A stretch of DNA of 64,000 nucleotides from the NCBI GenBank assembly GCA_951406725.2, contig OX597825.1, forward strand, positions 39,618,001-39,682,000, in the 5' to 3' direction. Each line of letters starts with the position of its first letter. Position 1 is the stretch's first letter. This document shows, piece by piece, positions 13,605 through 56,600 of the stretch. Position numbers and translations under genes: made by a program. The notes beneath the pieces are model-generated. The model was not told the origin of the DNA, did not search any database, and saw nothing but the letters and a program-made list of their open reading frames with translations. Source of the stretch: Octopus vulgaris (Eukaryota).

Positions 13605-14160
13605 AAAATAGTAAAAAGTGAAAAAACTACAGAAGGCTTGTTTTAAAAGGTTAAAAAATATATATTTGTGTCATTATGTCTGAAGAATGTTATAAATTTT
13701 GTTCATACAATGCCATAGTTTTTGAAGAAATGACCGGTTTCCCGTTCAGCTTTTCAAATTTTTTACATCGGTATGTTTATGTTGAGAAGTGTGAAGAGAG
13801 TTCCAGATAAGGGGAGGTAATAAGTGATTTCTTCTGGTGTAAGGGACGTAATCGCTTAATATTTCTTGCCTTTTTTCTGGAGTGAGTTTCTCTGTATAAG
13901 AATGTTGGAATCGTTAAGTTTGGGCTTGTATTTTTCAATGAAGAATGTTTCCTTGTTTAGTCTAATTTGTGTTGGTGTTCCGATAGCACATTGGTAAAAT
14001 GGAAAGATTAAAAGTTGTGGTAGTAGTTGCTTTGCGCATTTCTCAATGTGCTCAGTAAAGGGTATCATTCTGTATTCTGGGAATGCAATCTGTTGTCGAT
14101 GCAGTGTGCATCTACGTCTGAGTGATAGTCCCGTGGACCCCATGTAGTTTTGGTGGCAAT
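13605..14160 (-). mobile_element. Penelope-like 3' end (GIY-YIG C-terminus plus terminal repeat), inverted relative to the adjacent body
   Basis: ORF 13856-14143 reads (YM)GSTGLSLRRRCTLHRQQI...EH...KETFFIEKYKPKLN. It is a near-identical inverted copy of 15345-15700. Confidence 0.85.
13725..13763 (-). ncRNA. Minimal hammerhead motif, U3-A8 variant (helix II mutated)
   Basis: Minus strand reads AAAAAT-TTGAAAA-GC tgaac GG-GAAA-CCGG-TC-ATTTCT. Confidence 0.6.
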
Positions 14161-14164
14161 AATT

Positions 14165-15293
14165 GTGAAACCTAACAATGGGCTACCTGGAAATAATCAT
14201 TTACCAGGAATCTTTATCAATCTTTGGAAACCCCCTCTCTCAATACATAAAAGAGAATTGGAAACGATTCCTGGACGATTGTTTTATACTCTGGAATGAA
14301 AACACAGATAAACTCCTAAAATTCAAAAACCTATTGAACAGCACAAACCCAAATATACAGTTCACAATGGAATCCAAAAAAAGAGCGCCCATTTTTGGAT
14401 ATACTAATTTAAAAAATTAACCTTAAAATAGAAACAGACATTTTTTACCAAGCCACAGACGCCAAACAATACCTACTTTTTGATTCATGCCACCCAAGAT
14501 ACATTAACACACACATCCCCTTCAACCTTGCAAGAAGGATATGCACAATAGTGTCAGAACAAAATACCAGGAACTTTAGACTGCAAGAACTCAAAAACAC
14601 CCTAATTGACAGACATTACCCAGCTCAACTCATAGAGGATGGGATCAGACGTGCAACAGAAATTGACATAGAAACTTTAAGAAAAGTTCAACACAACAAC
14701 ACACATTCCCCGAAAATACTACCTTACATATCCACATACAACCCCAGAAACATAGAAGCCTTCACCATCATCACCCAGAATTTACCAATACTTCATAAGG
14801 ACCCCAAATTAAAGGAAATTCTAAACATACACCAAATCATTAAAAGCTACAAACAACCTAAATCACTTAAAAAGATTCTCACAAAGGCAAAATTGTTTTC
14901 TGAAATTACGGATACAAAAGTTCAAAAATGTGGTAGACTGAACTGTGCAACATGTCCAAACATGCTGAAGGATCAGAATTCACTCTTCAATGTCATGGAA
15001 AGACAGAAATTCACTAGTATCATAACTTTACTTGTGCCTTTCTCCTTTTTGAAAACATAATTTCATGTCATAAAACTGCTCGGGTCATGCCACTAGAATG
15101 AATCGACATGTGGGGTCCACGGATACTATGCGTTTACTTTTCTTTAGGTCTAGTAGATGCACACTTTGCCGAATCGACAACAGATTGCATTCCCAGAATA
15201 CAGAATGAACACCGCTCGTAGTGAGACACACACATTGACGTAAAAACTGCGCACACAGCACACACACACATATACACAATATATATATATATC

Positions 15294-15327
<34 letters not shown>

Positions 15328-15736
15328 GATACACACAACACAAATTTAGACTAAACAAGGAAACATTCTTCATTGAAAAATACACACACAAACACACACG
15401 ATTCCAACATTCTTGTACAGAGAAACTCACTAAAAAAAAAAGGCAAGACATATTAAGCGATTACGTCCCTTACACCGGAAGAAATCACTTATTACCTCTG
15501 GAACTCTCCTCACACTTCTCAACGTAAACATAACGATGTAAGAAATTTGAAAAGCTGAACGCGAAACCGGTCATTTCTTCAAAAACTATGTCATTGTATG
15601 AAATTTATAACATTCTTCTGACATAATGACTCAAATATATATTTTTTAACCTTTTAAAACAAGCCTTCTGTAGTTTTTTCACTTTTTACTATTTTCTATA
15701 TATTCAACCACGTGTTTTCACACACCAACTTTCTCA

Positions 15737-19177: not shown

Positions 19178-21577
19178 CAGTAGTTTTATTTTTATACCGT
19201 GCTTTCACTTCACTACCGAGCGCAGCTCTGTGTGCCTTGAGTATGTGCTGTGATTTGTTGTGATGCTCTGGTGGTTATTGTATGGAAAGTGCTCTGCGTA
19301 GGATGTGTGCAGTGCCTAGTAGTGCAATTTTCTATATTTTATATGTGTTAGTAAGTCCTGGTAATTTTGTCATGTATTTGTCTGAGTATTTTTTTTATCA
19401 TGACTAATGCACCTACTATGATAGGAATTGTTTCTGATTTTAGATTCCACATTCTGATTACCTCTATTTCCAGGTCTTGGTATTTTAAGAGTTTCTCCAT
19501 TTCTTTTAGAGACACGTTGTCATCTGCCTGTATTTTTACGTCAATTAGAAAGCATTTTTTTCTTCATGATCTCTGACAACTATAAGTGGTCTGTTGGCCT
19601 TAATTTATCTATCTGTGTGTATCGGCATATCCCAGAGTATGGTTGCTTTCTCGTTTTCTGTGACCTTTACTGGTGTGTGCCTATACCATCTTTTTTCTGT
19701 TGTTATTCCATAATGTTGGCATAGCTTCCAATATATGTAGGTTCCAACTCTGTCATGTCTGTGAATATATTGCTTCTTAGCCAGGACTGGGCAGCTAGAG
19801 ATAATATGATTTATTGTTTCTTGTCCATCTCCACATATACTGCAGTTACTTGTTGTATTTCTTTTCATTACATAATTTTGGAAATTTCTGGTGGGAAGGC
19901 TTTGGTCTTGTGCTGCAATTAAAAATTTCTCTGTTCCTGCTTTGAGTCCTGAGCTTCCCAACCATTGCTGGGATTTTTCTTTGTCTATTTCTTTTGCGTT
20001 TACTTTAGTCCAGTATTTACTATGAAGGGGCTTTTCTTGCCATCGTTTTATCATGGTTCGTTGCTGTTTTATTTTTAGTTTGGATTTCATTTGTTTTATA
20101 GCTTTTGTTGTTTCTTCTTCTTCTTCTTTTCTTCTTCTTCTTCTTCTTCTTCTTCTTCTTCTTCTTCTTCTTCTTCTTCTTCTTCTTCTTCTTCTTCTTC
20201 TTCTTCTTCTTTCTATTTGTTAGGTGGTATGAATTCTTGTTTCTATTTGTCAGCTTCTTTAAATACTGAGAACAGTGTTTTGTTTTGCTCGTGTTTTGCC
20301 GCTATTTGTATCAGTTTACATTCCTTCTGAAGTAGATATTTTTACAGTCCTGTGGTGGTTATTTTATAATGGTTTTCCAGCTGTATAATGCCCCTACCAC
20401 CTTCTATACGTTGTATAGATAGCTTTTCTATGTCAGATGATGCATCCTAGATCCTGTCATTATTTTTCTGGTTTTCCTATCTATTTTAGTCAGTTCATTT
20501 AATGACCAGTTAAGGATATTGTAGCGGTAACTTATAACTGGGACAGCTAAAGTGTTAATACCTATTATCTTGTTTTTAGCATTGAGCTATGTTTTTAATA
20601 TTGATCTAACTCGTCTATAATATTCTTTTTTTATTTTCTCTTTCATTTGTGTGTGTTGTGTCTTATCTAGTTCATGGATTCCTAAGTATTTGTAAGTTTG
20701 GCTTTCGTCTAATTCTTTTATTTCATTGGTTTTATCTAGTGTGATGTTGCTACTCTTAACTAGTTTTCCTCTTTTTAGGGTTACTTTGGCGCATTTTTCT
20801 AATCCAAATTTCACATCTATTTCTTTGGTAAATCCATGAACTGTCTTTAATAGTGTTTCCAGCTGTTTGTCATTTGCAGCGTATAGTTTTAGGTCATCCA
20901 TATATTAAAGGTGGCTGATCGTTTTGCCGTAACATTTATATCCGCATCCAGTTCTATTTAGTATATCAGATAGGGTTGACAGTGTCAAGCAGAAAAGGAG
21001 TGGAGAGAGCGTCTCCCTGGAATATTCCTCGTCTAATGAGGATGTCTTTGGTTTTCATGAGTCCCTCTTTTGTTTGGAGCTGTAGCACTGTTTGCCATTT
21101 ATTCATAGAGTGCCCTATGAATTTCATGATTGTTGGTGCTACTTTGGTAATGGCTAGTGTTTCGAGGATCCATGTGTGGTGGATGCTATCAATTTTGTAG
21201 TCGATCCAGGCCATACTGAGGCCTTTCTTCTTTCTGTGGCTGTCTTCAATTATGGCTTTATTAATCATTAGTTGATCTTTACAGCCATATGAGCCTTTGC
21301 GGCATCCTTTCTGCTCTTCTGGGAACAGTTTGTTTTCGTGCAGGTGCTTGTTCAACCTTTGCGATATCACTGCAGTAAATACCTTGAACATAGTAAGGAG
21401 GCAGGTTATTGGTCTGTAGTGCTCTGGTTTTGCTGTCTCAATTGATTTGGGAATTAAGATGGTTTTCCCCTTCGTGAGCCATTCAGGCATTGTCTCAGGC
21501 TCTGCTAGAATGTTGTTAAAGTTTTCAGCCAACTTTTTGTGCATTCTTGTTAGATATTTCAACCAGTAGTTGGGGAT
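19178..21577 (-). mobile_element. R4/Dong-like non-LTR retrotransposon (RT, CCHC, restriction-like endonuclease), 5'-truncated and frameshifted
   Basis: RT motifs YRPITCL, EEQKGCRKG, GIFQGDALS and YMDDLKLY; CxxC...HIISSC zinc knuckle; RHDRV and WDMPIHTDR RLE motifs. Both ends abut (TAA)n. Confidence 0.9.
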
Positions 21578-21609
21578 CTTATTATTATTATTATCTTTAT
21601 TAATATTAT

Positions 21610-22414
21610 TATTCTATGTTTGACTTTTGCTTTATATTTGTACAAGTTTGCTCTAAGTCTCACCCAGATACCTCAAGAGACAACAGGGTTGGAAGTTCAT
21701 GTTGTTGTTATGCCTAGTGTGCCATATATTTGGGGGGTGGGGGTGTTGTACTGATGAATGTCTAAAAAAAGTTTGTTTTTTTTAAACCGAAAATTATGAT
21801 TCTTTTAAACCTTGAGATTACATAGAAAGTATTTTGCGTAGGATATGAGCAGTTCCCATGAGCACTATCTTTTGAATTTCTGCCATTTTTGGGTTTCCTG
21901 GTATCTGAGTTAGGTAGCTATCAGCCCCTTTTGCTATCATTCCCAGGGCACCTATGACAACAGGTATTGTTTTAGTCTTCAGGTTCCACATTTTGCTGAT
22001 TTCTATTTCAAGATCTTTATATTTGCTCAGTTTTTGCTAGGTCTTGACAGATACGTTTATATCTATTGGGACAGTCATATCAATGAGGAGGCATGTTCTT
22101 TGTTTGAAGTCTTTCAATATGATGTCTGGCCTATTTGCATCTATCTTTCTGTCAGTTTGAATGGTGAAGTTCCAGAGGAGTGAGATGTGGTCATTTTCAA
22201 GCACTGGGGGTGGTTTGTGTTCCCACCATTTTATTTTCATGGGGCAAATCCAGGTTTTTACAGATTACCCAGTGAATATATTGGGCAGCTCTATCGTGCC
22301 TGTTGAGATACTCTGTAGGCGCTAGATGACTGCTCTTGGAGACCACATGGTCAATGGTTTCATTTTGTTGCTTGCATACACGACACGTTGGACTGCTTCT
22401 GATCTTTAATATGT
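21610..22414 (-). mobile_element. R4/Dong-like LINE 3' fragment, second subfamily
   Basis: WNFTIQTDRKIDANRPDIILKD...LIDMTVP carries the RLE PD-(D/E) motif. The fragment is bounded by (TAA)n. Confidence 0.85.
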
Positions 22415-22427
22415 TATTATTATTATT

Positions 22428-22920
22428 ATTCAGTAGTTTTATTTTTATAGCGTGCTTTCACTTCACTACCGAGCACAGCTCTGTGTGCCTTGGGTATGTG
22501 CTGTGATTTGTTGTGATGCTCTGATTGTTATTGTATGGAAAGTGTTCTGCGTAGGATGTGTGCAGTGCCTAGTAGTGCAATTTTCTGTATGTTATATGTG
22601 TTTGTAAGTCCTGGTGTTTTTGTTATGTATTTGTCTGAATATATTTTTATCATGCCTAATGGACCTACTATGATAGGAATTGTTTCTGTTTTCAGATTCC
22701 ACATTCTACTGACCTCCATTTCCAGGTCTTTGTATTTTGAAAGTTTCTCCATTTCTTTTAGAGACACGTTGTCATCAGCCGGTATTGATACATCAATTAG
22801 AAAGCATTTTTTTTTTCTTCATGATCTCTGACAACTATATCTGGTCTGTTGGCCTTAATTTCTCTATCTGTGTGTATCGGCATATCCCAGAGTATGGTTG
22901 CTTTCTCGTTTTCTGTGACC

Positions 22921-22921
<1 letters not shown>
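22428..22921 (-). mobile_element. R4/Dong-like LINE 3' fragment
   Basis: Encodes KEMEKLSKYKDL...RMWNLKTETIPIIVG and has the same 3' UTR as the copy ending at 19178. It sits in (TAA)n. Confidence 0.9.
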
Positions 22922-22959
<38 letters not shown>

Positions 22960-22973
22960 CATTATGATTATTA

Positions 22974-23008
<35 letters not shown>

Positions 23009-23247
23009 GAGTGAGAGAGCAGTTCATGCCATCAAAGTGACACTGGGGTAAAATATACGAAGCCCAATATACCCATCATGACTACCCGTCTGATAAAGGT
23101 ACACCAGGCACATGCATCACAACCATATGTGCGCGACATGGTGATCTATTTTGACCTTGCAGGTGGGGCCCAGTTAGAATTTTCTTCAGGTTGAGTAGCC
23201 CATCCCGTTATCATTTATTTCAAACCCCATGGCTATATCATTTTGCT

Positions 23248-23590
<343 letters not shown>

Positions 23591-23791
23591 TTTATTTATT
23601 TCATCATTAACATAATCATCATCCCCTTCATGGTCCCAATATGGAAGCATTTATATCGATATATCAAATGTGTTTTACAAGGATTATATTCCACGTAAGC
23701 TGAATGTGTATTATACATACATGACTAATTGAAAAACACAATATTCGTTTCGTGTGCTATCACGTAATTATTTATTTATTTACGTCTTCCT

Positions 23792-23887
<96 letters not shown>

Positions 23888-23951
23888 ATTTTAATTATTA
23901 TTATTATCATTCAGTTATTATTATTATCATTATTATTATCATTTTTATTAT

Positions 23952-24623
23952 TATGTGCCTTGGGTATGTGCTGTGATTTGTTGTGATGCTCTGATGGTTA
24001 TTGTATGGAAAGTGTTCTGCGTAGGATGTGTGCAGTGCCTAGTAGTGCAATTTTCTGTATGTTATATGTGTTTGTAAGTCCTGGTGTTTTTGTTATGTAT
24101 TTGTCTGAATATTTTTTTATCATGCCTAATGCACCTACTATGATAGGAATTGTTTCTGTTTTCAGATTCCACATTCTAGTTACCTCTATTTCCAGGTCTT
24201 TGTATTTTGAGAGTTTCTCCATTTCTTTTAGAGACACGTTGTCATCTGCCGGTACTGATACATCAATTAGAAAGCATTTTTTTTCTTCATAGTCTCTGAC
24301 AACTATATCTGGTCTGTTGGCCTTAATTTCTCTATCTGTGTGTATCGGCATATCCCAGAGTATGGTTGCTTTCTCGTTTTCTGTGACCTTTTCTGGTGTG
24401 TGCCTATACCATCTTTTTTCTGTTGTTATTCCATAATGTTGGCATAGCTTCCAATGTATGTAAGTTCCAACTCTGTCATGTCTGTGAATATATTCCTTCT
24501 TAGCCAGGACTGGGCAGGTAGAGATAATATGATTTATTGTTTCTTGTCCATCTCCACATATTCTGCAGTTACTTGTAATATTTCTTTTCATTACATGTTT
24601 TTGGTAATTTCTGGTGGGGAGGC
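23952..24623 (-). mobile_element. R4/Dong-like LINE 3' fragment with open CCHC + RLE domain
   Basis: ORF 23998-24639 reads CRICGDGQETINHIISTC, RHDRV, NRPDIV, LIDVSVP, KEMEK. It is flanked by (TAA)n. Confidence 0.92.
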
Positions 24624-25333
24624 TTATTATTATTATCATTTTTATTATTATTATTATTATTATTATTACTGTTCTTCTGACTCTACTTTATCTCCTTCTT
24701 CTTCTTCTCCTTCTTCTTCTTCTCCTTCTTCTTCTTCTCCTTATTATTATTATAATTATTATTGTTGTTGTTGTTGTTGTTCTTGTTGTTCTTTCTGTTA
24801 ACATCATCAGCATCGTCATCATCATCATTATTATTATTGTTATTATTACTCATTGTTAATCGCATTTAGCTTCCAGAATTTGTCACAATGTAGTTTTAAC
24901 AGAGTATAGATGTCTGTTGAAATGTTAAGCAATGTTAAATACAAATTTTCAACTCTGGATTGTTCAAATTTCTTTTCCAATATTGATATTAGAAGTTTGT
25001 ATTTGGATTTCCTGCATTGTTGGAAGATGATTTTTTTCCCTTTCTGACATTTACCGCTTTGCTTCGTATTTGTTCGCAGCTTTGTTCCTTTTGAATTTAT
25101 TTTCATCACATATATTTCGAACACATTTCAGTTTTATTGAAGTTCAACTGATGAAAATATTTGCTATAAGTAAACAACAAATGCAATGATTATTAATTTA
25201 GATAAATAAACCAGCATATATCGTTGTTTTGCAATAATTTTGCTAAACTTTTTACTTCGATGTGTATTTACAAATAAATATTATTTTGCCGATTAAGAGA
25301 ATATGTTGTAGTTTAAATAAAAATGTCAGAATG

Positions 25334-28922: not shown

Positions 28923-28993
<71 letters not shown>

Positions 28994-29216
28994 TCTATAT
29001 CAAGGTAGCAAAATATTCAAGAGAAATTTTTCGCAACCAGCGGTCTAGTGAGAAAGAAAAAATAGTCAACAGACAAAATATAATGTACATTCAACAATAA
29101 TATTAAGGAATGGCCTTGATAGGCCATTCAACTCACTAAAACGAGCAGCCAAACTCAAACCACTAAATAGTATTAATTCAGAATTAAAGGAAAATTAAAA
29201 ACATTTACCCTTATCA

Positions 29217-29314
29217 TCTTTGGACTATGCATAGTTTCGACGTAGATCTTGGCAAACCAGCTTAAGTAAATTAAATTAAATCAATTTACCACTGACCCGT
29301 CTCATCAGCAAAGA
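29217..29314 (-). ncRNA. Type I hammerhead ribozyme, intact core
   Basis: Minus strand reads TCTTTG-CTGATGA-GACG(55 nt)CGTC-GAAA-CTATGCATAG-TC^CAAAGA. Confidence 0.88.
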
Positions 29315-29556
29315 AGCCAGGGGGAATATATATCCCACGAGGCAACAGCATCGATGCCTCGGGAATATATACTCTAAACTTTCTAATTCTACAGTCATCA
29401 CGCCAACTTATCAGCAGCAAATAAAAACTGCCGATTTAATTTCAGAATTAGCCAAAAAATCAATAATTAATCAATATCAGGGTAGCAAAAAATTCAAGAG
29501 AGATTTTTTCGGCACCAGCGGTATAGTGAGAAACAAAAAATAGTCAACAGACTTTA

Positions 29557-30818
29557 CGAGGGGCGTTCAATAAGTAATGCCCCTGACCCACTTCCCTTAG
29601 CAGTAGAGCAACGAAACTTGGCACAGTTATTAGTCTTTCTCTGCATAGGAACCACCCAGAGTTATGCATTTCTCCCATCGTTTGATGCAGCTCTGGAGAC
29701 CATTTTTGTAGAAGACCCCAGCTTGGTCCTCCAACCACGACGTGACTTCAGAAATCAAGGCTGCATCATCTGGGAAACGCTTTCCTTTCAAAAACAACTT
29801 CATGGCTGGGAAGAGGTGAAAATCAGAGGGTGCAAGGTCAGGAGAGTAGGGGGATGGGGGAGGATTCATAGCCGCACGCCTGTGCTTCTGATCTGGCGAC
29901 ACGCGAGTTGTGAACCGGAGCGTTGTCCTGCAGGAGGAGGATGCCTTTGCTGATCTTGCCCCGCCTCTTGATTTTGATAGCTTGTCTTAATTTCCTCAAA
30001 TGTGAAGCAGAATAGGATCCTGTAATTGTGTTACCCTTTGCCAGGAAATCTGTCATTACTACTTCGTCCTGGTCCCAGAAGACTGCACCCTTGCCTTCTT
30101 TAGAGGAGGTAAGTCACGGTGCTTCCACTGCATTGACTGGGCTTTGGTCTCTGGATCAAAGTGATGGACCCAGGTTTCATCCTGTATAATCAGTCTTTTG
30201 AAAAATTTTGACTCATCTTCTTGGCACATCTCCAAATTCATCCTCCAGGACCCGACGCGTTCTTGCTTCTGGAAAGGTGTGAGCAACCTGGGAATCCATC
30301 TGGCAGACACCTTTTGCATATGCAAATGGTCGTGAATGATAGTTTACACAGACCCGGTACTAATCTTGACCTCATGAGCTATTTGGTGAATAGTTATGCG
30401 TCGATTTTCCAAAATGGCAGCCTCAACTTGACAGACAGATGCCTCATCAATGGCAGAAGGGGGCGACCAGATCTGGGAGCTGTTTCCACAGAGTTCCGAC
30501 CATGTTTGAATTCACGATGCCAGCGTTTTACAAGGTCATATGATGGAGCATCATCACCATAAGTTACTTTCATTTCATCAAAAGTCTCCAGTTGTGTGCG
30601 TCCTTTCAAATACAAAAACCGGATCACTGCCCGACACTGAACAGGCTCCATTTCACACTTGACTCATTTCAAATACCTGTAAATCAAAAACCACAATTAG
30701 TTTAGAACTGTAATTTGCTACTTCATCTATAGAGATATAAATATTTGCACATGCAAAATTTCAACTAGATCAAACAAATGCAAGTGGGTCAGAGGCATTA
30801 CTTATTGAACGTCCCTCG
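29557..30818 (-). mobile_element. Full-length mariner transposon (1262 bp), frameshifted DD34D transposase
   Basis: TIRs cgaggggcgttcaataagtaatgcccctgacccactt / aagtgggtcagaggcattacttattgaacgtccctcg with TA on both sides. Motifs WIPRLL, QDETW, LQDNAP and YSPDLAPSDFHLF lie across ORFs from 30651 to 29630. Confidence 0.95.
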
Positions 30819-30957
30819 TATAATGTACATTCAACAATAATATTAAGAAATGGCCTTGATAGGCCATTCGACTCACTAAAACGAGCAGCCAAACTCAAAC
30901 CGCTAAATAGCATTAATTCAGAAACTAAAGGAAAATTAAAAACATTTACCCTTATCA

Positions 30958-31064
30958 TCTTTGGATTATGCATAGTTTCGACGTACATTTGGCAAACCAG
31001 CTTAAGTAAATTAAATTAAATTTAATTAAATCAATTTACCACTGGCCCGTCTCATCGGCAAAGA
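30958..31064 (-). ncRNA. Hammerhead motif, probably inactivated
   Basis: TCTTTG-CCGATGA-GACG...CGTC-GAAA-CTATGCATAA-TC-CAAAGA; U4>C and G16.2>A relative to 29217-29314. Confidence 0.75.
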
Positions 31065-31202
31065 AGCCAGGGGGAATATATATTTTCCACGAGGCAACAG
31101 CATCGATGCCTCGGCAATACATACTCTAAACTTTCAAAATCTACCGTCATCGCGCCAACTTATCAGCAGCAAATATAAACTGCCGATTTAATTTCAGAAT
31201 TA

Positions 31203-31271
<69 letters not shown>

Positions 31272-33849: not shown

Positions 33850-35400
33850 GGAATGTTAACAAAAACAAGACGCAGACATGTGGTGTAGACAACGAAAAAT
33901 GTATTAGTTTAACGCTCGGGAATTGAAAAGGTCTTTAATGTTTCGAGCCGACGCTCTTCCACAGAATGGAACACAGAAAGAAACAGGTAAATAAAATAAA
34001 GAATGGGTAGTGGCTAGCGATCTCCCATGGTGAATGGTTGACAGAGGGGTCGCACAGGAGAGCTAGGAAGAGGGGGAGATAATAAAGTGGTGGAGATCAC
34101 AATACGAAGGCCGGCGTGTGTGTATATAACAGCATGTATGTGCCTGTGGAAGAGGACTGGTGATCTTGACGTGTGCGTGTGTGCATGTGTATTTGTGTGG
34201 GCGCTGGTGTGGGGCTAAGAAGTGGTCAGTGCTAGTGTGTACGTGGTGCTGATGTAAAGTGGTATTGTGTGAGATGGTGGTGAGTGGTGTGGTGGTGTAT
34301 GGTGTGTGGTGTTGTTAGGACGTGGGGGACTTAAGTGAAGGGAAAGCAAGGGTGGGGTGTAGTTTAGGCTGAGGGTGGGGTATATGGGAGTTGGTGTAAT
34401 GGATGGATAGGGAAGTTGGGGTTGGATTGTGTAGGGGTGATGTTACAATGGAGGGGTGAAAATGAAAGAAGAGTGGAATGGGAGAAGGTGAGTAGGAGTG
34501 AAGAGAAGAGAGAAGGAGGGCAGGAGTGAAGAGAAGATGTTGGAGTCGGAGCAAGTGAGGAGAGGTGGGTGGGAGGAAGTATATGTGAGAGGAAAAGAGG
34601 AGAGGGGAGGAGAGTTAGATGAAGCGGGGAGGAGAGTTGAGCCCATGTGGGGCAAAAGAGCGAAGATAGAAAACTAATCTCCGTTCACAGCTAAGACGGG
34701 ATTACAGATGACCCCTGTGCAAGAATAATCCGAACACAGACAAGTGTTGCAAAGAAAGACCAGTAGAGCGGAAGTGGCGTGAGACCGTGGTGCCATTGCC
34801 GAGTCGGGTGCCTCGTAGGTGTTCTGCGAATCGGTTAGCCAAGCTGCGTCCCGTTTGCCCGATATATAGAGAAGGGCAGAGAGAGCGCGAGATGCAGTAG
34901 ATGACATTGCTAGGAGTGCAGGTGAAGCAGTTGGTTATATGATAGGTTCGATGATAGGTGCCGGTGAGGAGAGTGGTATTGGAGAGGTAAGGACAAGTGC
35001 AGCAGCGTGGGCGGGAGCAGGGGAACGAGCCGGGTTGGGAGATTAGGTTAGGGAAGAGACTGTGGACCAAGAGGTCTTGTAGGTTGTGGGCACGTTTGAA
35101 GGAGGGGAGGGTCCAGTTAGGGAAGATGTGCAAAGTGGAGCGGTCGAACTGGAGTCGCCAGAAGGCTCGAAGAATGGTGCGTTGGGAGATGAGGAGAAAC
35201 GGGAGGCGGGGGATGTCGCGGTGGGTGCGGTGGCAAGGGCTGATGCACGGTCCACGGAAGTGCTCTAGCAAAGGCGGTGTGAATAGTGGTGAGGGGGATA
35301 GCCATGTAGGATGAAGCGGTGAAGTTATGAACAGATAGAAGAGACGGGCTATAATTACTTGGAGATTGTGGTGAATAAGAAAGAAAGAACATGCATGATT
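33850..35400 (-). mobile_element. Penelope-like element 3' fragment (GIY-YIG)
   Basis: ORF 34702-35457 reads FKRAHNLQDLLVHS, CSRPRCCTC, NVIYCIS..LCPSLYIGQTGRSLANRFAEH. A long pyrimidine-rich 3' region follows on the minus strand. Confidence 0.88.
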
Positions 35401-35454
35401 ACCGACATAGCATGCCCCGATGACAACAGGATCAATGTGTAAGATGAAAAAAAA

Positions 35455-49960: not shown

Positions 49961-50015
49961 TTATATATATATATATAAATATATGTATGTATGTATATAT
50001 ATGTATATAAAAATA

Positions 50016-50137
50016 CAGTGTACATTTAAACACATAATAGATGTCCATAACAGGACATCTGACTCGCTAGAAAAAAGTAGTTAAACTACAACCCTATAAT
50101 AGTTGTAATAGACACTTATGTGCTTAAATGTACACTG
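50016..50137. mobile_element. Tiny Tc1-type MITE
   Basis: TA|CAGTGTACATTTAAACACATAA ... TTATGTGCTTAAATGTACACTG|TA. Confidence 0.7.
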
Positions 50138-50236
50138 TATTTTAATATGAATAATATATAGTCTATTGACTAGCTTTTTCTTCTCGCTAGACCACTGGTA
50201 GCAAAGACATTTTCTAAATTTTCCTGCCATCCTAAG

Positions 50237-50302
<66 letters not shown>

Positions 50303-51359: not shown

Positions 51360-51363
51360 TCTG

Positions 51364-51449
<86 letters not shown>

Positions 51450-51507
51450 AATCTATCTATCTATCTATCTATCTACCTATCTAACTATCTATCTATCCAT
51501 CTTTCTT

Positions 51508-51572
<65 letters not shown>
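51360..51572. repeat. (CTAT)n microsatellite
   Basis: Directly visible. Confidence 0.95.
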
Positions 51573-51594
51573 ATATATATATATACAACAATTT

Positions 51595-52261
51595 ATCTTT
51601 CAATTTCAGAATTACTACTATTTAGCGGTTTGAGTTTGGCTGCTCTTTCTAGTGTGCCGAATGGCCCATTATGGCCATTCCTTATATTGTTGAATGTATA
51701 TTATATAGTCTTTGACTATCTTTTCTCTCTCACTAGACCGCTGGTAGGGGATAATTTTTTTCTAGAATTTTTTGCTACTCTTATATTTATTAATTAATGA
51801 TTTTTTGGCTAATTTTGAAATTAAATCGGCAGTTTATATTTGCTGCTGAGAAGACCGCGCGGTGGCTGTGGATTTTGAAGATTTAGAGCATATAGACTGG
51901 AGGCTACTTTACCATCGCCTCGTGGATATATACTCATCCTCGGCTTCTCTGCTGACGAGACACGGCAGTTGTAAATAAATTTAATTTAAATTAATTAATT
52001 TGTTTTCCAAAGTTTGTCGAAACTATGCATAGTCCAGAGATGAATGGGATAAACGTTTTTATTTCTCTTTCAATTTCAGAATTACAACTATTTAGCGGTT
52101 TGAGTTTGGCTGCTCTTTCTAGTGAGTCGAATGGCCTATTATGGCCATTCCTTATATTGTTGAATGTATATTATATAGTCTTTGACTATCTTTTCTTTCT
52201 CACTAGACCGGTGGTAGCGGATAATTTTTTCTAGAATTTTTTGCTACCCTTATATTTATTA

Positions 52262-52262
<1 letters not shown>
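51595..52262 (+). mobile_element. ~1.4 copies of a 470-bp hammerhead-bearing repeat (retrozyme-like)
   Basis: caatttcagaattac occurs at 51601 and 52071 (period 470). Homologous to 28991-31205 and flanked by (TA)n. Confidence 0.8.
51946..52040 (+). ncRNA. Type I hammerhead ribozyme, intact core
   Basis: TCTCTG-CTGACGA-GACA...TGTC-GAAA-CTATGCATAG-TC^CAGAGA. Confidence 0.88.
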
Positions 52263-52292
<30 letters not shown>

Positions 52293-52582
52293 AATGTATA
52301 TTATATAATTGTTGAATATTATATTATATTGTTGAATGTATATTATATAATTGTTGAAATTATAATTCATATCTCTCTATTTAATGCCTCGGATTTTACC
52401 GAAAAAAAGCATGTTGTTTGCTGATTTTAACCCACGCTGGTGGAAGGGGGAGAGCAGAAATTCTTCGCTTGCATGTTCGAATTTGCTGGCACTGTTAGTT
52501 TCGAGTAGATCTTCGGAGACGATGGGAAGCCGAAAAGGTATGCTCCTACTTTCAGTGTTTTCAAATCCAAACCAGGGAGTTC

Positions 52583-52634
52583 TGAGCTGATGATAGAAAT
52601 GTCTTTTTGACTAATCTTGAAACGTACGTTCTCA
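52583..52634 (+). ncRNA. Type I hammerhead motif (second family), copy 1
   Basis: TGAG-CTGATGA-tagaaatgtc ttttt gactaatctt-GAAA-CGTACG-TT^CTCA has palindromic helix III ACGTACGT and an imperfect helix II. Confidence 0.68.
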
Positions 52635-53140
52635 AATAACCTTTGCATTTGATTTTTTAATGTTTCTACCCTCATACTTTCGTGAGTTGAATTGAGCAAA
52701 CACTTTACGAGAGAGATTTTCTTTAAGTATTGGAAATAGTTTTTAAAAAAGTTTTTTTAGCTGCTATTTCTAATGAGTTCAGTATGCGGCAAAGTAATTT
52801 ATTTTACTAAGCCCTTTTATATAATGTAATAATTTGAATTCGCCTTAAATGGTCCCTTTGCATACTGAATACTTGGTGAAATTGATTAATTAATTAATTT
52901 TACCCTCAATTGTTGAAATTATAATTCATATCTCTCTATTTAATGCCTCGGATTTTACCGAAAAAAAGCATGTTGTTTGCTGATTTTAACCCACGCTGGT
53001 GGAAGGGGAGAGCAGAAATTCTTCGCTTGCATGTTCGAATTTGCTGGCACTGTTAGTTTCGAGTAGATCTTCGGAGACGATGGGAAGCCGAAAAGGTATG
53101 CTCCTACTTTCAGTGTTTTCAAATCCAAACCAGGGAGTTC

Positions 53141-53192
53141 TGAGCTGATGATAGAAATGTCTTTTTGACTAATCTTGAAACGTACGTTCTCA
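53141..53192 (+). ncRNA. Type I hammerhead motif (second family), copy 2
   Basis: Identical to 52583-52634. Confidence 0.68.
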
Positions 53193-53375
53193 AATAACCT
53201 TTGCATTTGATTTTTTAACGTTTCTACCCTCATACTTTCGTGAGTTGAATTGAGCAAACACTTTACGAGAGAGATTTTCTTTAAGTATTGGAAATAGTTT
53301 TTAAAAAAGTTTTTTTAGCTGCTATTTCTAATGAGTTCAGTATGCGGCAAAGTAATTTATTTTACTAAGCCCTTT

Positions 53376-53453
<78 letters not shown>

Positions 53454-53481
53454 TTGTGTGATTGTCTGTCTGTCTCTCTGT

Positions 53482-53540
<59 letters not shown>

Positions 53541-53619: not shown

Positions 53620-56600
53620 TTTTCTCTGTGGCTGTGCCTCATCGGCTTCTGCTAGAAAATAGGGCTGATACAGTGCTTTGCCGTTCGTGGTGTGCACATC
53701 CTCGTCCCACCTCACCACCTATACCGGAAGTCTGTATCCTCTAACGTCAAGCGGATGTTTTCCCTTGAACACCTGTAATGGCTTATTAAACGGAATGCTT
53801 TCCCTCAAACTCTTCCCACTCCATTCTTACTTTGTGTCTATCTCTGCTGGAGGTTGTTATTACGTAGCGGATAAAATGATGGTGCAGTGTATGCTGGTTG
53901 AATGCTATTTGTATGTTTACGAGATCTGCCAAATGCGAGCTTTCTATTCGGATGCAAAATGCTGCTGTACTCCTTCCCTGTGTCTTGCCGGCCTAAACCT
54001 TCCACACTGTCAGAGTTGGCACATTGAAAGGTAGGTCTGATGAGATTGTTGAGATGCCTGAACGGAGACGTATAAATTTGTGCTATATCCAAGAAGTTAA
54101 GTGGAGAGTAAGTTCTGCTATGTTCCTCACAGGCAAAGAACAAAGGTATAAGATTTTCTGGGTAGGGAACACTGATGGTGTTGGGGCGTGGTTATACTCC
54201 TTGCGGAGAAATGTGTTGATAAGATAACCGTAATCGATGTGGTCAGAATCTGTGATAGAATACTTAAGCATAGACTAGTGGTGTAACATGGATCAGCAAC
54301 ACGTATCTCGGCCTATTCGCCTCAGCCAGTGCTACCTGATGAACAGACAGACTGATTATATGACACCCTCTTACACACACCTTGTCGAGAAAAAAACAGG
54401 GACATTCTCTTTGTGGATAGCGACTTCAATGGTCATGTTAGAAAATATCCAGGGAGCTTCCATATTGTACGTGGTGGCAACGGATTTGGTTCCCGGAATG
54501 GGGAGGGAATCACGCTGCTAGAGGTCTCTGAGGCAAATAATCTTATGATCTGTAATACTAACTTCAGGAAACCTGCCAGCCGCCTGTTCACCTATCAGCA
54601 TGGTGAACACACTAGTCGGATTGACAACATTCACGCCAGGAAACGGGGAAGTAGGCTTCTTATAAATGCCAATATTTTCCAAGGTAATGATTGCACCCCA
54701 CAACATAGATTACTAGTTACCGACTACATATTCAAAGCAAAATGGCTGCCCAGAAGACAACCAGCATGGAAAAGAAGGGACTGGAAACTTAAGGATCCTC
54801 TGAAGGGACAGAGATTTAAAGACGTATTGAATCTTTTGAAGAAAAAGTGGACATAGCGTCACATAACGTGGAAGCCAACTGGAGGTTCCTACACAACAAC
54901 TTGTTGAGGGCTACTGACCAGATATGTGGCTAGAACGAAGTCCCCTCTCGACCTAAAGTAACGTGGTAGTGGAACAATGTAGCTGACAGGGCTATTTGGA
55001 AAAAAAACAATCATGGAAGGAGTGGAAGTATGGTGGTAACAGGGAAGTGTATCAGATTGCCAGGAGGGAAAATAGGAGACAGGTTTACGTAACCAAAGGG
55101 GAAGCAAATAACAAAAAAAAATGCCCATGTTCTGCGTCGTGAGAACCAGAGACTTGAAGTGTTCAGTTTATGCAAAACAATGTGTGAGAGAATGTCGTGA
55201 TCTCATAGAAGATATATGTATCAGCATGGATGGCTCACTTACAGTTAATGATGCTGCAAAGAGAGATACTTGGAGACGCCACCATGAAAGGATCGTAAAT
55301 GAAGAGAATGAATTGGTGAAAGAAAGTCTGCCAAATGTCGACCCAACAAAGGGACCAGGTATTCGAATTGACGGTATCTTGGATAGATAAAACAGTTAAA
55401 GATATGAAAACAGGGAAAGCCCCCGGCCCATCAGGAACCATTGCTGAGATGCTTAAAATATTTGACGGTGTAGGCTATAGTTTATTCACCCTTATAGTCA
55501 ACCGTGTGATACATGAAGGAGTCATACCCAATGGCACGTGTAACAACTCCATAGTCAAGTGCTACAAAGGTTAAGGTGATGCATTAGATGGCAATAATTA
55601 CAGAGGTATCACATTGTTGAATAGGTGATGAAAGTCACGGAGAGAGTCATAGCTCAACTCATTAGGGAGAGAGTTAATTTAGACGAGATGCAGTTTGGGT
55701 TTGTACGAGGGAGAAGCACCACTGATGTTACATTTCTGGTACATCTGGTGCAGCAGTAATTCCTAACAAAATATAAACCTCTGTACTTGGCTTTCGTTGA
55801 CACGGAGAAAACTTTTGACAGGGTCCTCTGATCCCTTATCTGGTGGTCAATGCGGAAACAATGGATAGATGAGTGATTGTTGGGAGCTGTACAAGCCATG
55901 TGCAGGCATGATGCCAGTAAGACGAGGGTTGGCAAACAGTACGGCGAAGAATTCCAGGTAAAAGTAGGAGTTCACCATTGAACAGTCATCAGTCCCCTCG
56001 TATTCATCATCGTTCTCCATGCATCATACAGTCTACCTTTCCCTTTGAACGAGAAGCCCGTTGTTACTAGCAGACGTAGGAGCCCTCGGGACTTTGCTAG
56101 AATAAGAATAGACTGGGGAAAGTCCCGAGAGCTCCTACCTCTGCTAGTAACAACAGGCTTCTCGTTCAAAGTGAAAAGTAGACTGTATGATGCATGAGCG
56201 CGAACAGGCATGCTACACAGCAGTGAAACACGGGCTTTGACTGCTGAAGACATGTGTAGTCTTGAAAGAAAGGAAGCTAATGTGATCCGCTGGATGTGTA
56301 GTGTCAGTGTGCATACTCGACAGACTGTAGGCGCCTTGAGATAAAAGTTGGACATAAGAAGCATCAGATGTGGTGTGCAAGAAATATGATTGTGCTGGCA
56401 TGGATACGTTTTTTGTAGGGATGAGGACAGCTGTGTGGAGAAGTGCCACACCCTAACAATGGAAGAAACCTGTGAAGGAGGCAGCCGTACGAAAACATTG
56501 AATGAGATGCTGAAGCACGATCTTCGAACGTTGGGGCTTACATAGGCAATAAGATGCTACCGAGACCTTTGGATACATGCTGTTATTAAGACCTGGCCAC

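Follow-up and report, generated by a model that had tools for sequence, protein, structure and literature searches.

Type I hammerhead ribozymes combine a CUGANGA ... GAAA ... NUH core with three helices, of which helix I is open, and the base of helix II is typically a G10.1–C11.1 pair. Non-LTR retrozymes of animals were described by Cervera & de la Pena 2020 (PMC7229834). They are presented as non-autonomous derivatives of Penelope-like elements (PLEs) by Li, Clavereau & Pollet 2026, whose set of 35 genomes has no mollusc in it (bioRxiv 10.64898/2026.07.22.740005). The axolotl ribozyme HHR_Amex2 is reported with a 2-bp helix III closed by a tetraloop and a U·U at the base of helix II; its monomer reaches 22% cleavage within an hour, and its dimer performs far better (PMC7229834). 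Eight of nine predicted Xenopus retrozyme dimers reportedly gave no cleavage in vitro. Among the PLE-type motifs displayed, mostly not assayed, GUU ends 12 of 44, including two from the limpet Lottia (PMC4209133). Cleavage by the Anolis PLE ribozyme is reported to be aided by co-transcriptional folding or protein (PMC11167929), and insertion biases are given for Naiad PLEs towards (TA)n and for Neptune PLEs towards microsatellites (PMC8557442).

The repeat annotation of Octopus vulgaris reports 893 recently active unclassified SINE families, and a term search of its text and supplement returned 0 mentions of hammerhead, ribozyme or retrozyme (PMC13282606). No paper was found in a literature search on cephalopod hammerheads and retrozymes, although supplementary listings may still include the repeat reported here. 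On its testable features, this 558-bp repeat is a new family of a known class, the animal non-LTR retrozymes.

A tandem repeat within a compound microsatellite

The window, the whole 64-kb stretch analysed, is AT-rich animal DNA with GC mostly 27–43% and with microsatellites and broken transposons throughout. The locus comprises the following features.

51360-51589: (TCTA)n(TA)n, left part of the compound microsatellite target
51590-52263, + strand: 470-bp hammerhead repeat, 1.43 units, core at 51952, predicted cut after 52034
52284-52349, + strand: 5′ junction, about 3 copies of a 21-22-nt piece also found in the 470-bp unit (52154-52177)
52350-52908, + strand: repeat unit 1, complete, 559 nt
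52909-53386, + strand: repeat unit 2, 478 nt, ending early and passing into (TA)n, with 2 differences from unit 1
53376-53540, no strand assigned: (TA)n followed by (TCTA)n, the right-hand portion of the compound target

The first-pass annotation had described two near-identical tandem units, each with one hammerhead and with predicted cuts after 52630 and 53188, 558 nt apart, and this was borne out. The units differ at two places in 477 nt: a G-run near 52446 varies in length by one G, and 52661/53219 is T/C. Unit 2 is 3′-shortened to 478 nt, so that the locus amounts to 1.86 units rather than 2. Read instead as repeat-spacer-repeat, it would have an 82-nt spacer between 477-nt repeats. An autonomous PLE at the locus was rejected, with only this 82-nt spacer available and no RT/GIY-YIG domain.

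The 470-bp repeat lies on the same strand, as had been noted, but the two are not in direct contact: a TA run and a 66-nt scrambled junction intervene, the latter (52284-52349) having at its end 9 nt that match the beginning of unit 1. Both repeats sit inside one and the same compound microsatellite of the form (TCTA)n(TA)n ... (TA)n(TCTA)n. They stand side by side because they share a target and not because they form one element.

The minus-strand open reading frames had been reported to lack a recognisable domain. All four frames tested indeed matched no Pfam family at E ≤ 1, and a coding role was rejected. A reading as a tRNA-derived SINE was likewise rejected, as no tRNA was found. The repeat may be linked to the octopus 'Twin' SINE.

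Both units carry a type I hammerhead

The motif TGAG-CTGATGA-25 nt-GAA-ACGTACGT-T-CTCA occurs in each unit; its two cores lie at 52587 and 53145.

52583-52634, + strand: type I hammerhead 1, predicted cut after 52630 (GUU)
53141-53192, + strand: type I hammerhead 2, identical to hammerhead 1, predicted cut after 53188

The type I core is intact in both units and the site is GUU. Hammerhead 1 is composed of helix I TGAG/CTCA, the core CTGATGA (52587-52593), GAAA (52619-52622) and a palindromic helix III, ACGTACGT. Helix I has 4 bp and can be extended to about 52572/52645, with an internal loop possible. Helix II is built from a U·U base, 3 bp, a 3x3 internal loop, 3 bp and a 5-nt loop. The G10.1–C11.1 pair is thus absent, replaced by U·U both in this copy and, judging from the variant tables, across the family. 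Helix III has 2 bp alone, or 8 bp as a dimer.

A strict type I descriptor with a palindromic helix III gave 4 matches in the window, 2 here and 2 in the 470-bp family, and 0 matches in all 300 block-wise dinucleotide shuffles. With the palindrome rule removed, 5 matches were obtained against a shuffle mean of 0.08 and a maximum of 2. An Rfam search of the repeat returned no hammerhead family even at E ≤ 10; its matches, to hairpins and microsatellites, were rejected as chance. Families of this kind go unannotated because Rfam misses the motif. A metagenome scan for the motif gave 0 matches.

The earlier suggestion that the palindromic helix III would favour a dimer fold agrees with the computed energies. 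The palindrome gave −9.8 kcal/mol as a duplex versus +2.4 as a hairpin, and the forced double hammerhead fold reached −157.8 kcal/mol versus −145.7 for two single folds. The free minimum was −170.7 kcal/mol, placing the active double fold about 13 kcal/mol above it, so that cleavage would need co-transcriptional folding or protein. Efficient cleavage by this particular copy is given a chance of under one half. GUU and U·U had been listed as warning signs, a concern that is weakened by the occurrence of both in natural motifs already described (PMC7229834, PMC4209133).

Conservation across family copies

Unit 1 was contained in 20 public runs from 8 studies with 3 organism labels, at word shares of 0.31–0.92. 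One 558-nt period (52480-53037, with the unit junction inside) was compared with the contigs of 4 of 24 listed runs at 80% likeness. Run X1 may be the source sample, while X2 (same label, other study) and X8 (other label) are independent. None of the runs containing the repeat is listed as RNA. Run X5 is marked 'RNA?'; this mark is a guess and the run was not counted as evidence of transcription. Contigs fitting one unit numbered 3998, 377, 2607 and 180 in the four runs, and all 30 bins were covered. Summed depths reached 10^5–10^6 against single contigs near 20; depth itself is no copy number, but we infer from this contrast at least hundreds, and probably thousands, of copies.

The head-to-tail junction 52908/52909 was bridged in X2 (52756-53032) and in X8 (52789-53035; 52848-52936), where the first contig is 630 nt long and goes round more than one unit. 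Joints from the period end back to its start were present in all four runs, in each of which the junction and the 82-nt spacer were among the deepest-covered parts of the family. The repeat is thus one insertion of a very high-copy family. The worry that the dimer might be an assembly duplicate is removed for the family by the bridged junctions in other samples, though not strictly for this locus.

Variation was examined through the 40 best supported of 49 variants, which fall at 39 places, and through 12 of 39 junction-letter entries. The remaining nine variants are A>G, G>A, G>T, T>C or T>G changes, which could in principle hit the core; the hammerhead core is deeply covered. Among the variants listed, only 52599, 52604, 52606 and two small insertions vary within 52583-52634. 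These three places all fall within the 11 positions of the internal and terminal loops of helix II (P about 0.007), and none of the 41 core and stem positions varies (P about 0.05), in line with the earlier expectation that other copies would conserve the core. A G/A variant at 52575 keeps its pair in the extended helix I. The confinement to loops, again among the variants listed, holds in DNA runs from three studies with two organism labels. It had also been asked whether a family consensus would restore a perfect helix II. It does not: no A>T or T>A change occurs at 52594-52600 in any of the four runs. All A>T, T>A and C>T changes tallied in these runs are among the variants listed and are placed elsewhere, so a perfect helix II is not the consensus. 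Judged from sequence, the U·U, the GUU and the palindromic helix III are family traits and not decay. The ribozyme is not unique in being conserved, since the unit also has longer invariant stretches, of 63, 52, 44 and 41 nt, that lie outside the hammerhead or extend past it. Decayed copies exist, as one contig of X8 lacks 52562-52640 and with it the hammerhead.

This copy differs from the X1 majority at 14 of 558 places. The two units have in common alleles that few family members carry; the one at 52705, for instance, makes up no more than 0.2% of depth in any of the three DNA runs. This indicates that both were copied from one template, which could have been a circle copied more than once around or an array of uniform units, unless one unit was duplicated later. 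A block of variants at 52927, 52933, 52939 and 52947 (52927-52974) was common in X2 and X5 but seldom seen in X1 and X8, which suggests that samples with the same organism label differ in the subfamilies they contain.

Predicted structure of the monomer RNA

Folding was computed for the RNA between the two predicted cuts.

52631-53188, + strand: predicted cut-to-cut monomer RNA, 558 nt, 34% GC, strongly folded
52664-53012, + strand: predicted long-range rod formed by 52664-52716 and 52929-53012, spanning the genomic unit junction
52777-52870, + strand: 11-bp stem 52777-52787/52860-52870, from fold prediction and variants

The monomer fold of −150.2 kcal/mol (z −5.0) was better than all 100 shuffles. 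Its z was −5.9 on the + strand and −3.5 on the − strand, compared with −2.7 to +1.3 for 13 background windows. The predicted rod encloses hairpins at 52729-52774 and 52875-52904. Rotating the unit changed the linear fold energy little (−144 to −152), so that folding neither singles out the cut site nor proves a circle.

Variants at the inner pair C52787–G52860 of the 11-bp stem had matched frequencies across the four runs (0.49/0.44, 0.54/0.46, 0.53/0.45 and 0.75/0.69). A compensatory C–G to U–A swap, unphased and the sole two-sided change, is probable here. Placing 17 majority letters across runs into the sequence improved the circular fold from −144.6 to −154.6, while random changes of the same types worsened it to −133.1 ± 5.8, with 0 of 60 as low, although any family built from inverted repeats passes such an energy test. 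The improvement indicates that the source copies have more structure than the present copy. Of 18 variants at positions that are paired in the fold of this copy, 10 break the pair and 8 keep it. A bias between strands among G·U-tolerant changes did not reach significance (8 keep, 4 break).

The predicted monomer has the 5′ arm of helix I paired elsewhere, and the GAAA box is able to base-pair with a common loop-2 variant. On this model, hiding the helix I arm or the GAAA box is a possible off-switch in the circle.

A shared 3′ end with the neighbouring family

The 558-bp repeat had been called apparently unrelated to the 470-bp family. That description has to be revised, as the two have colinear blocks and a 3′-end motif in common.

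52760-52777, + strand: motif common to the 558- and 470-bp families, second copy at 53318-53335
53360-53386, + strand: 3′-end motif TTTTRCTA(AG)CCCT...TAAT, common with the ends of 470-type insertions, first copy at 52802-52827

Monomers aligned from their cut sites gave colinear blocks with a best local score of 39, versus a maximum of 38 in 1000 shuffles. A second colinear block scored 31, and scores of at least 30 were seen in 37 of the 1000. For the shared-motif patterns, drawn from the same sequences, shuffle counts are inflated. All three full-length insertions of hammerhead repeats, together with two fragments, stop 10-15 nt past a similar TTTTRCTA(AG)CCYT-like motif and then pass into (TA)n, the motif being looser in the 50.2-kb fragment. 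(TA)n is reached 227 nt after the cut in the 470 type and 198 nt after it in the 558-bp repeat. From these sequence comparisons, the two families may be distant kin or clients of one enzyme.

The window holds two more-than-unit 470-type insertions. The second is a dimer on the minus strand split by a mariner-like element (28991-29556 and 30819-31206). The inserted element spans about 29557-30818; its label is our reading of its ORF, which had no Pfam match. One hammerhead of this split dimer is intact and the other has core and helix III changes. Between the 28991-31206 and 51952 copies, helix I differs on both sides (C–G versus U–A). Helix II is here unusually long, at 60-63 nt. Short, partly inverted fragments at 2259-2431 and 50013-50245 are more distant relatives of the 470-bp family and end in (TA)n.

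Two PLE remnants are also present. The first, at 13659-15641, includes the C-terminal part of an RT (14413-15057, + strand), which has RT/GIY-YIG relatives, and an inverted copy of its own 3′ end. Both of its repeat copies carry a minimal hammerhead (near 15566 on the + strand and 13738 on the − strand) with a U3–A8 core variant and a palindromic helix III, ACCGGT. The second, at 33900-35454 (−), has a GIY-YIG domain with a CxxxxCxxC linker and a degenerate hammerhead-like motif near 33950; its GIY-YIG match (34702-35454) is weak, with E 0.0006, below the curated cut-off. The 558-bp repeat has no sequence similarity to these two remnants. Named relatives of the LINE and PLE pieces of the window are from marine invertebrates at 54-63%, and molluscs; among the latter, Octopus bimaculoides reaches 56% over 63% of the query. 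Three near-identical 3′ LINE pieces (92-97%) with a zinc-binding C-terminus lie at 19198-24687 beside (ATT)n tracts. A further stretch, 53990-56560, we take to be a broken RTE-like LINE; the one piece of it tested had no Pfam match.

Discussion

The repeat is non-coding, lacks a tRNA head, is multi-copy, has a GC content under 50% and a self-paired monomer, and comes as at least two units in tandem. We consider it likely to be a non-LTR retrozyme: non-coding, non-autonomous and mobilised by a PLE-type protein. Direct support exists for its tandem architecture, conserved hammerhead, abundance, strong fold, ends and (TA)n insertion. In the proposed mechanism, a multimeric transcript would be cut by a double hammerhead in which two palindromic helices III pair, possibly with protein assistance. 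The 558-nt monomer may then be circularised by a host ligase; RtcB is reported to ligate axolotl and mussel retrozymes into circles in vitro. A PLE RT/GIY-YIG protein would nick (TA)n, and target-primed reverse transcription would begin at an internal position of the RNA some 200 nt past the cut (start region 53360-53386). Copying for more than one round would yield the 1.86-unit insertion. The 5′ junction (52284-52349) might be left by template slippage at the end of reverse transcription, or by repair. A target-site duplication is unreadable because both ends lie in (TA)n.

A broader reading is more tentative, and we regard it as possible but doubtful. The 558-bp and 470-bp families and the distant fragments would form a very high-copy superfamily of undescribed cephalopod retrozymes, present to this day as abundant, structured circular RNAs with a common cis-signal. 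The monomers would hide the ribozyme in the manner of viroids, and the signal would fix the start of a Penelope-type RT and direct the repeats into (TA)n. If this were true, these families may be among the 'unclassified SINE' of the octopus genome, and they would offer a direct handle on which enzyme mobilises animal retrozymes.

It is unlikely that the 558-bp unit is instead the pseudo-LTR of an autonomous PLE, the locus being a truncated or ORF-less PLE insertion made from PLE transcripts with no circular monomer. Several properties would fit such an origin: GUU and a palindromic helix III are common in the PLE hammerheads reported (12 of 44 with GUU, PMC4209133), PLEs are described as leaving partial tandems, starting reverse transcription at fixed internal sites and targeting AT-rich DNA (PMC11167929), and retrozymes are themselves reported as derived from PLE repeats. 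However, no coding trace was found in the 4 frames tested, the predicted fold pairs across the unit junction like a closed non-coding unit, and helix I extends as in canonical, not minimal, motifs. Contigs running into unlike sequence numbered 0 in three DNA runs, a weak argument because high-copy contigs are short.

Still less probable is a once-active retrozyme whose hammerhead is now idle, spread by PLE-type read-through RNA copying or by DNA-level tandem amplification, with the motif conserved only because the burst is recent. The missing G10.1–C11.1 pair, an active fold that is not the ground state and the small number of differences from the X1 majority (14 of 558) are compatible with this, as are the report that hammerhead mutants leave PLE insertion in vitro unimpaired (PMC11167929) and the inactivity of eight of the nine Xenopus dimers tested. 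Against it stand the confinement of motif variation to loops in the DNA runs of three studies with two organism labels, among the variants listed, and the two-sided helix I change in the neighbouring 470-bp family. It is very improbable that the family is real and only the dimer here is artefactual, through duplication in the assembly, or arose when a monomer was duplicated locally at a late stage. In favour of this, the units show just 2 differences in 477 nt, one of them in a G-run, long microsatellites flank the locus and no contig among those listed spans the stretch. Against it, the junction and the 82-nt spacer are deepest-covered in all four runs and bridged in other samples, and the 470-bp family is twice present as more-than-unit insertions in the window.

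As a non-LTR retrozyme, the repeat belongs to a class already known, and another family is no surprise to a specialist. The repeat is of value as a test case through its size, which is large for an invertebrate retrozyme, its very high abundance and its occurrence under three organism labels. The 3′-end motif and (TA)n target common to two families make the copying retroelement and its recognition signal testable.

Comparison with known systems

The repeat resembles the animal non-LTR retrozymes described in PMC7229834 in its head-to-tail, non-coding arrangement, its GC content under 50%, its single type I hammerhead per unit, its self-paired monomer and the co-existence of PLEs. Like axolotl HHR_Amex2, it has a 2-bp helix III and tetraloop and a U·U at the helix II base, the axolotl ribozyme working best as a dimer (PMC7229834). 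Unlike the families tested there, of about 170-400 nt, the unit measures 558 nt, and its helix II has a 3x3 internal loop (PMC7229834). The predicted hiding of the 5′ helix I arm, and of the GAAA box with the common loop-2 variant, is described in that source for plant retrozymes, viroids and some mussel circles, and not for most animal ones (PMC7229834).

With the PLE pseudo-LTR hammerheads of Cervera & de la Pena 2014, the repeat has in common the type I fold, a palindromic helix III, the frequent GUU and the dimer model (PMC4209133). It differs from these reported pseudo-LTRs in having no RT-GIY-YIG ORF between the repeats, no G10.1–C11.1 pair and a helix I that is extendable with an internal loop (PMC4209133). 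The Poseidon PLE of Anolis is described with fixed internal RT starts downstream of the hammerhead, as inferred here, and with partial tandems (PMC11167929). AT-rich or (TA)n targets are common to our repeat, Poseidon (PMC11167929) and the Naiad and Neptune PLEs (PMC8557442), although those elements are protein-coding and autonomous. The 3′ end here matches the target by a few TA bases, while the Anolis start site is reported as non-homologous to its target (PMC11167929).

The 558-nt unit size lies above 150-450 bp and inside the 51-972 bp of described retrozyme families. This wider range and the dimer, a listed form, are both given by Li, Clavereau & Pollet 2026 (bioRxiv 10.64898/2026.07.22.740005). 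Under their definition as published there, two consecutive units with complete motifs place the repeat among the putatively active non-LTR retrozymes.
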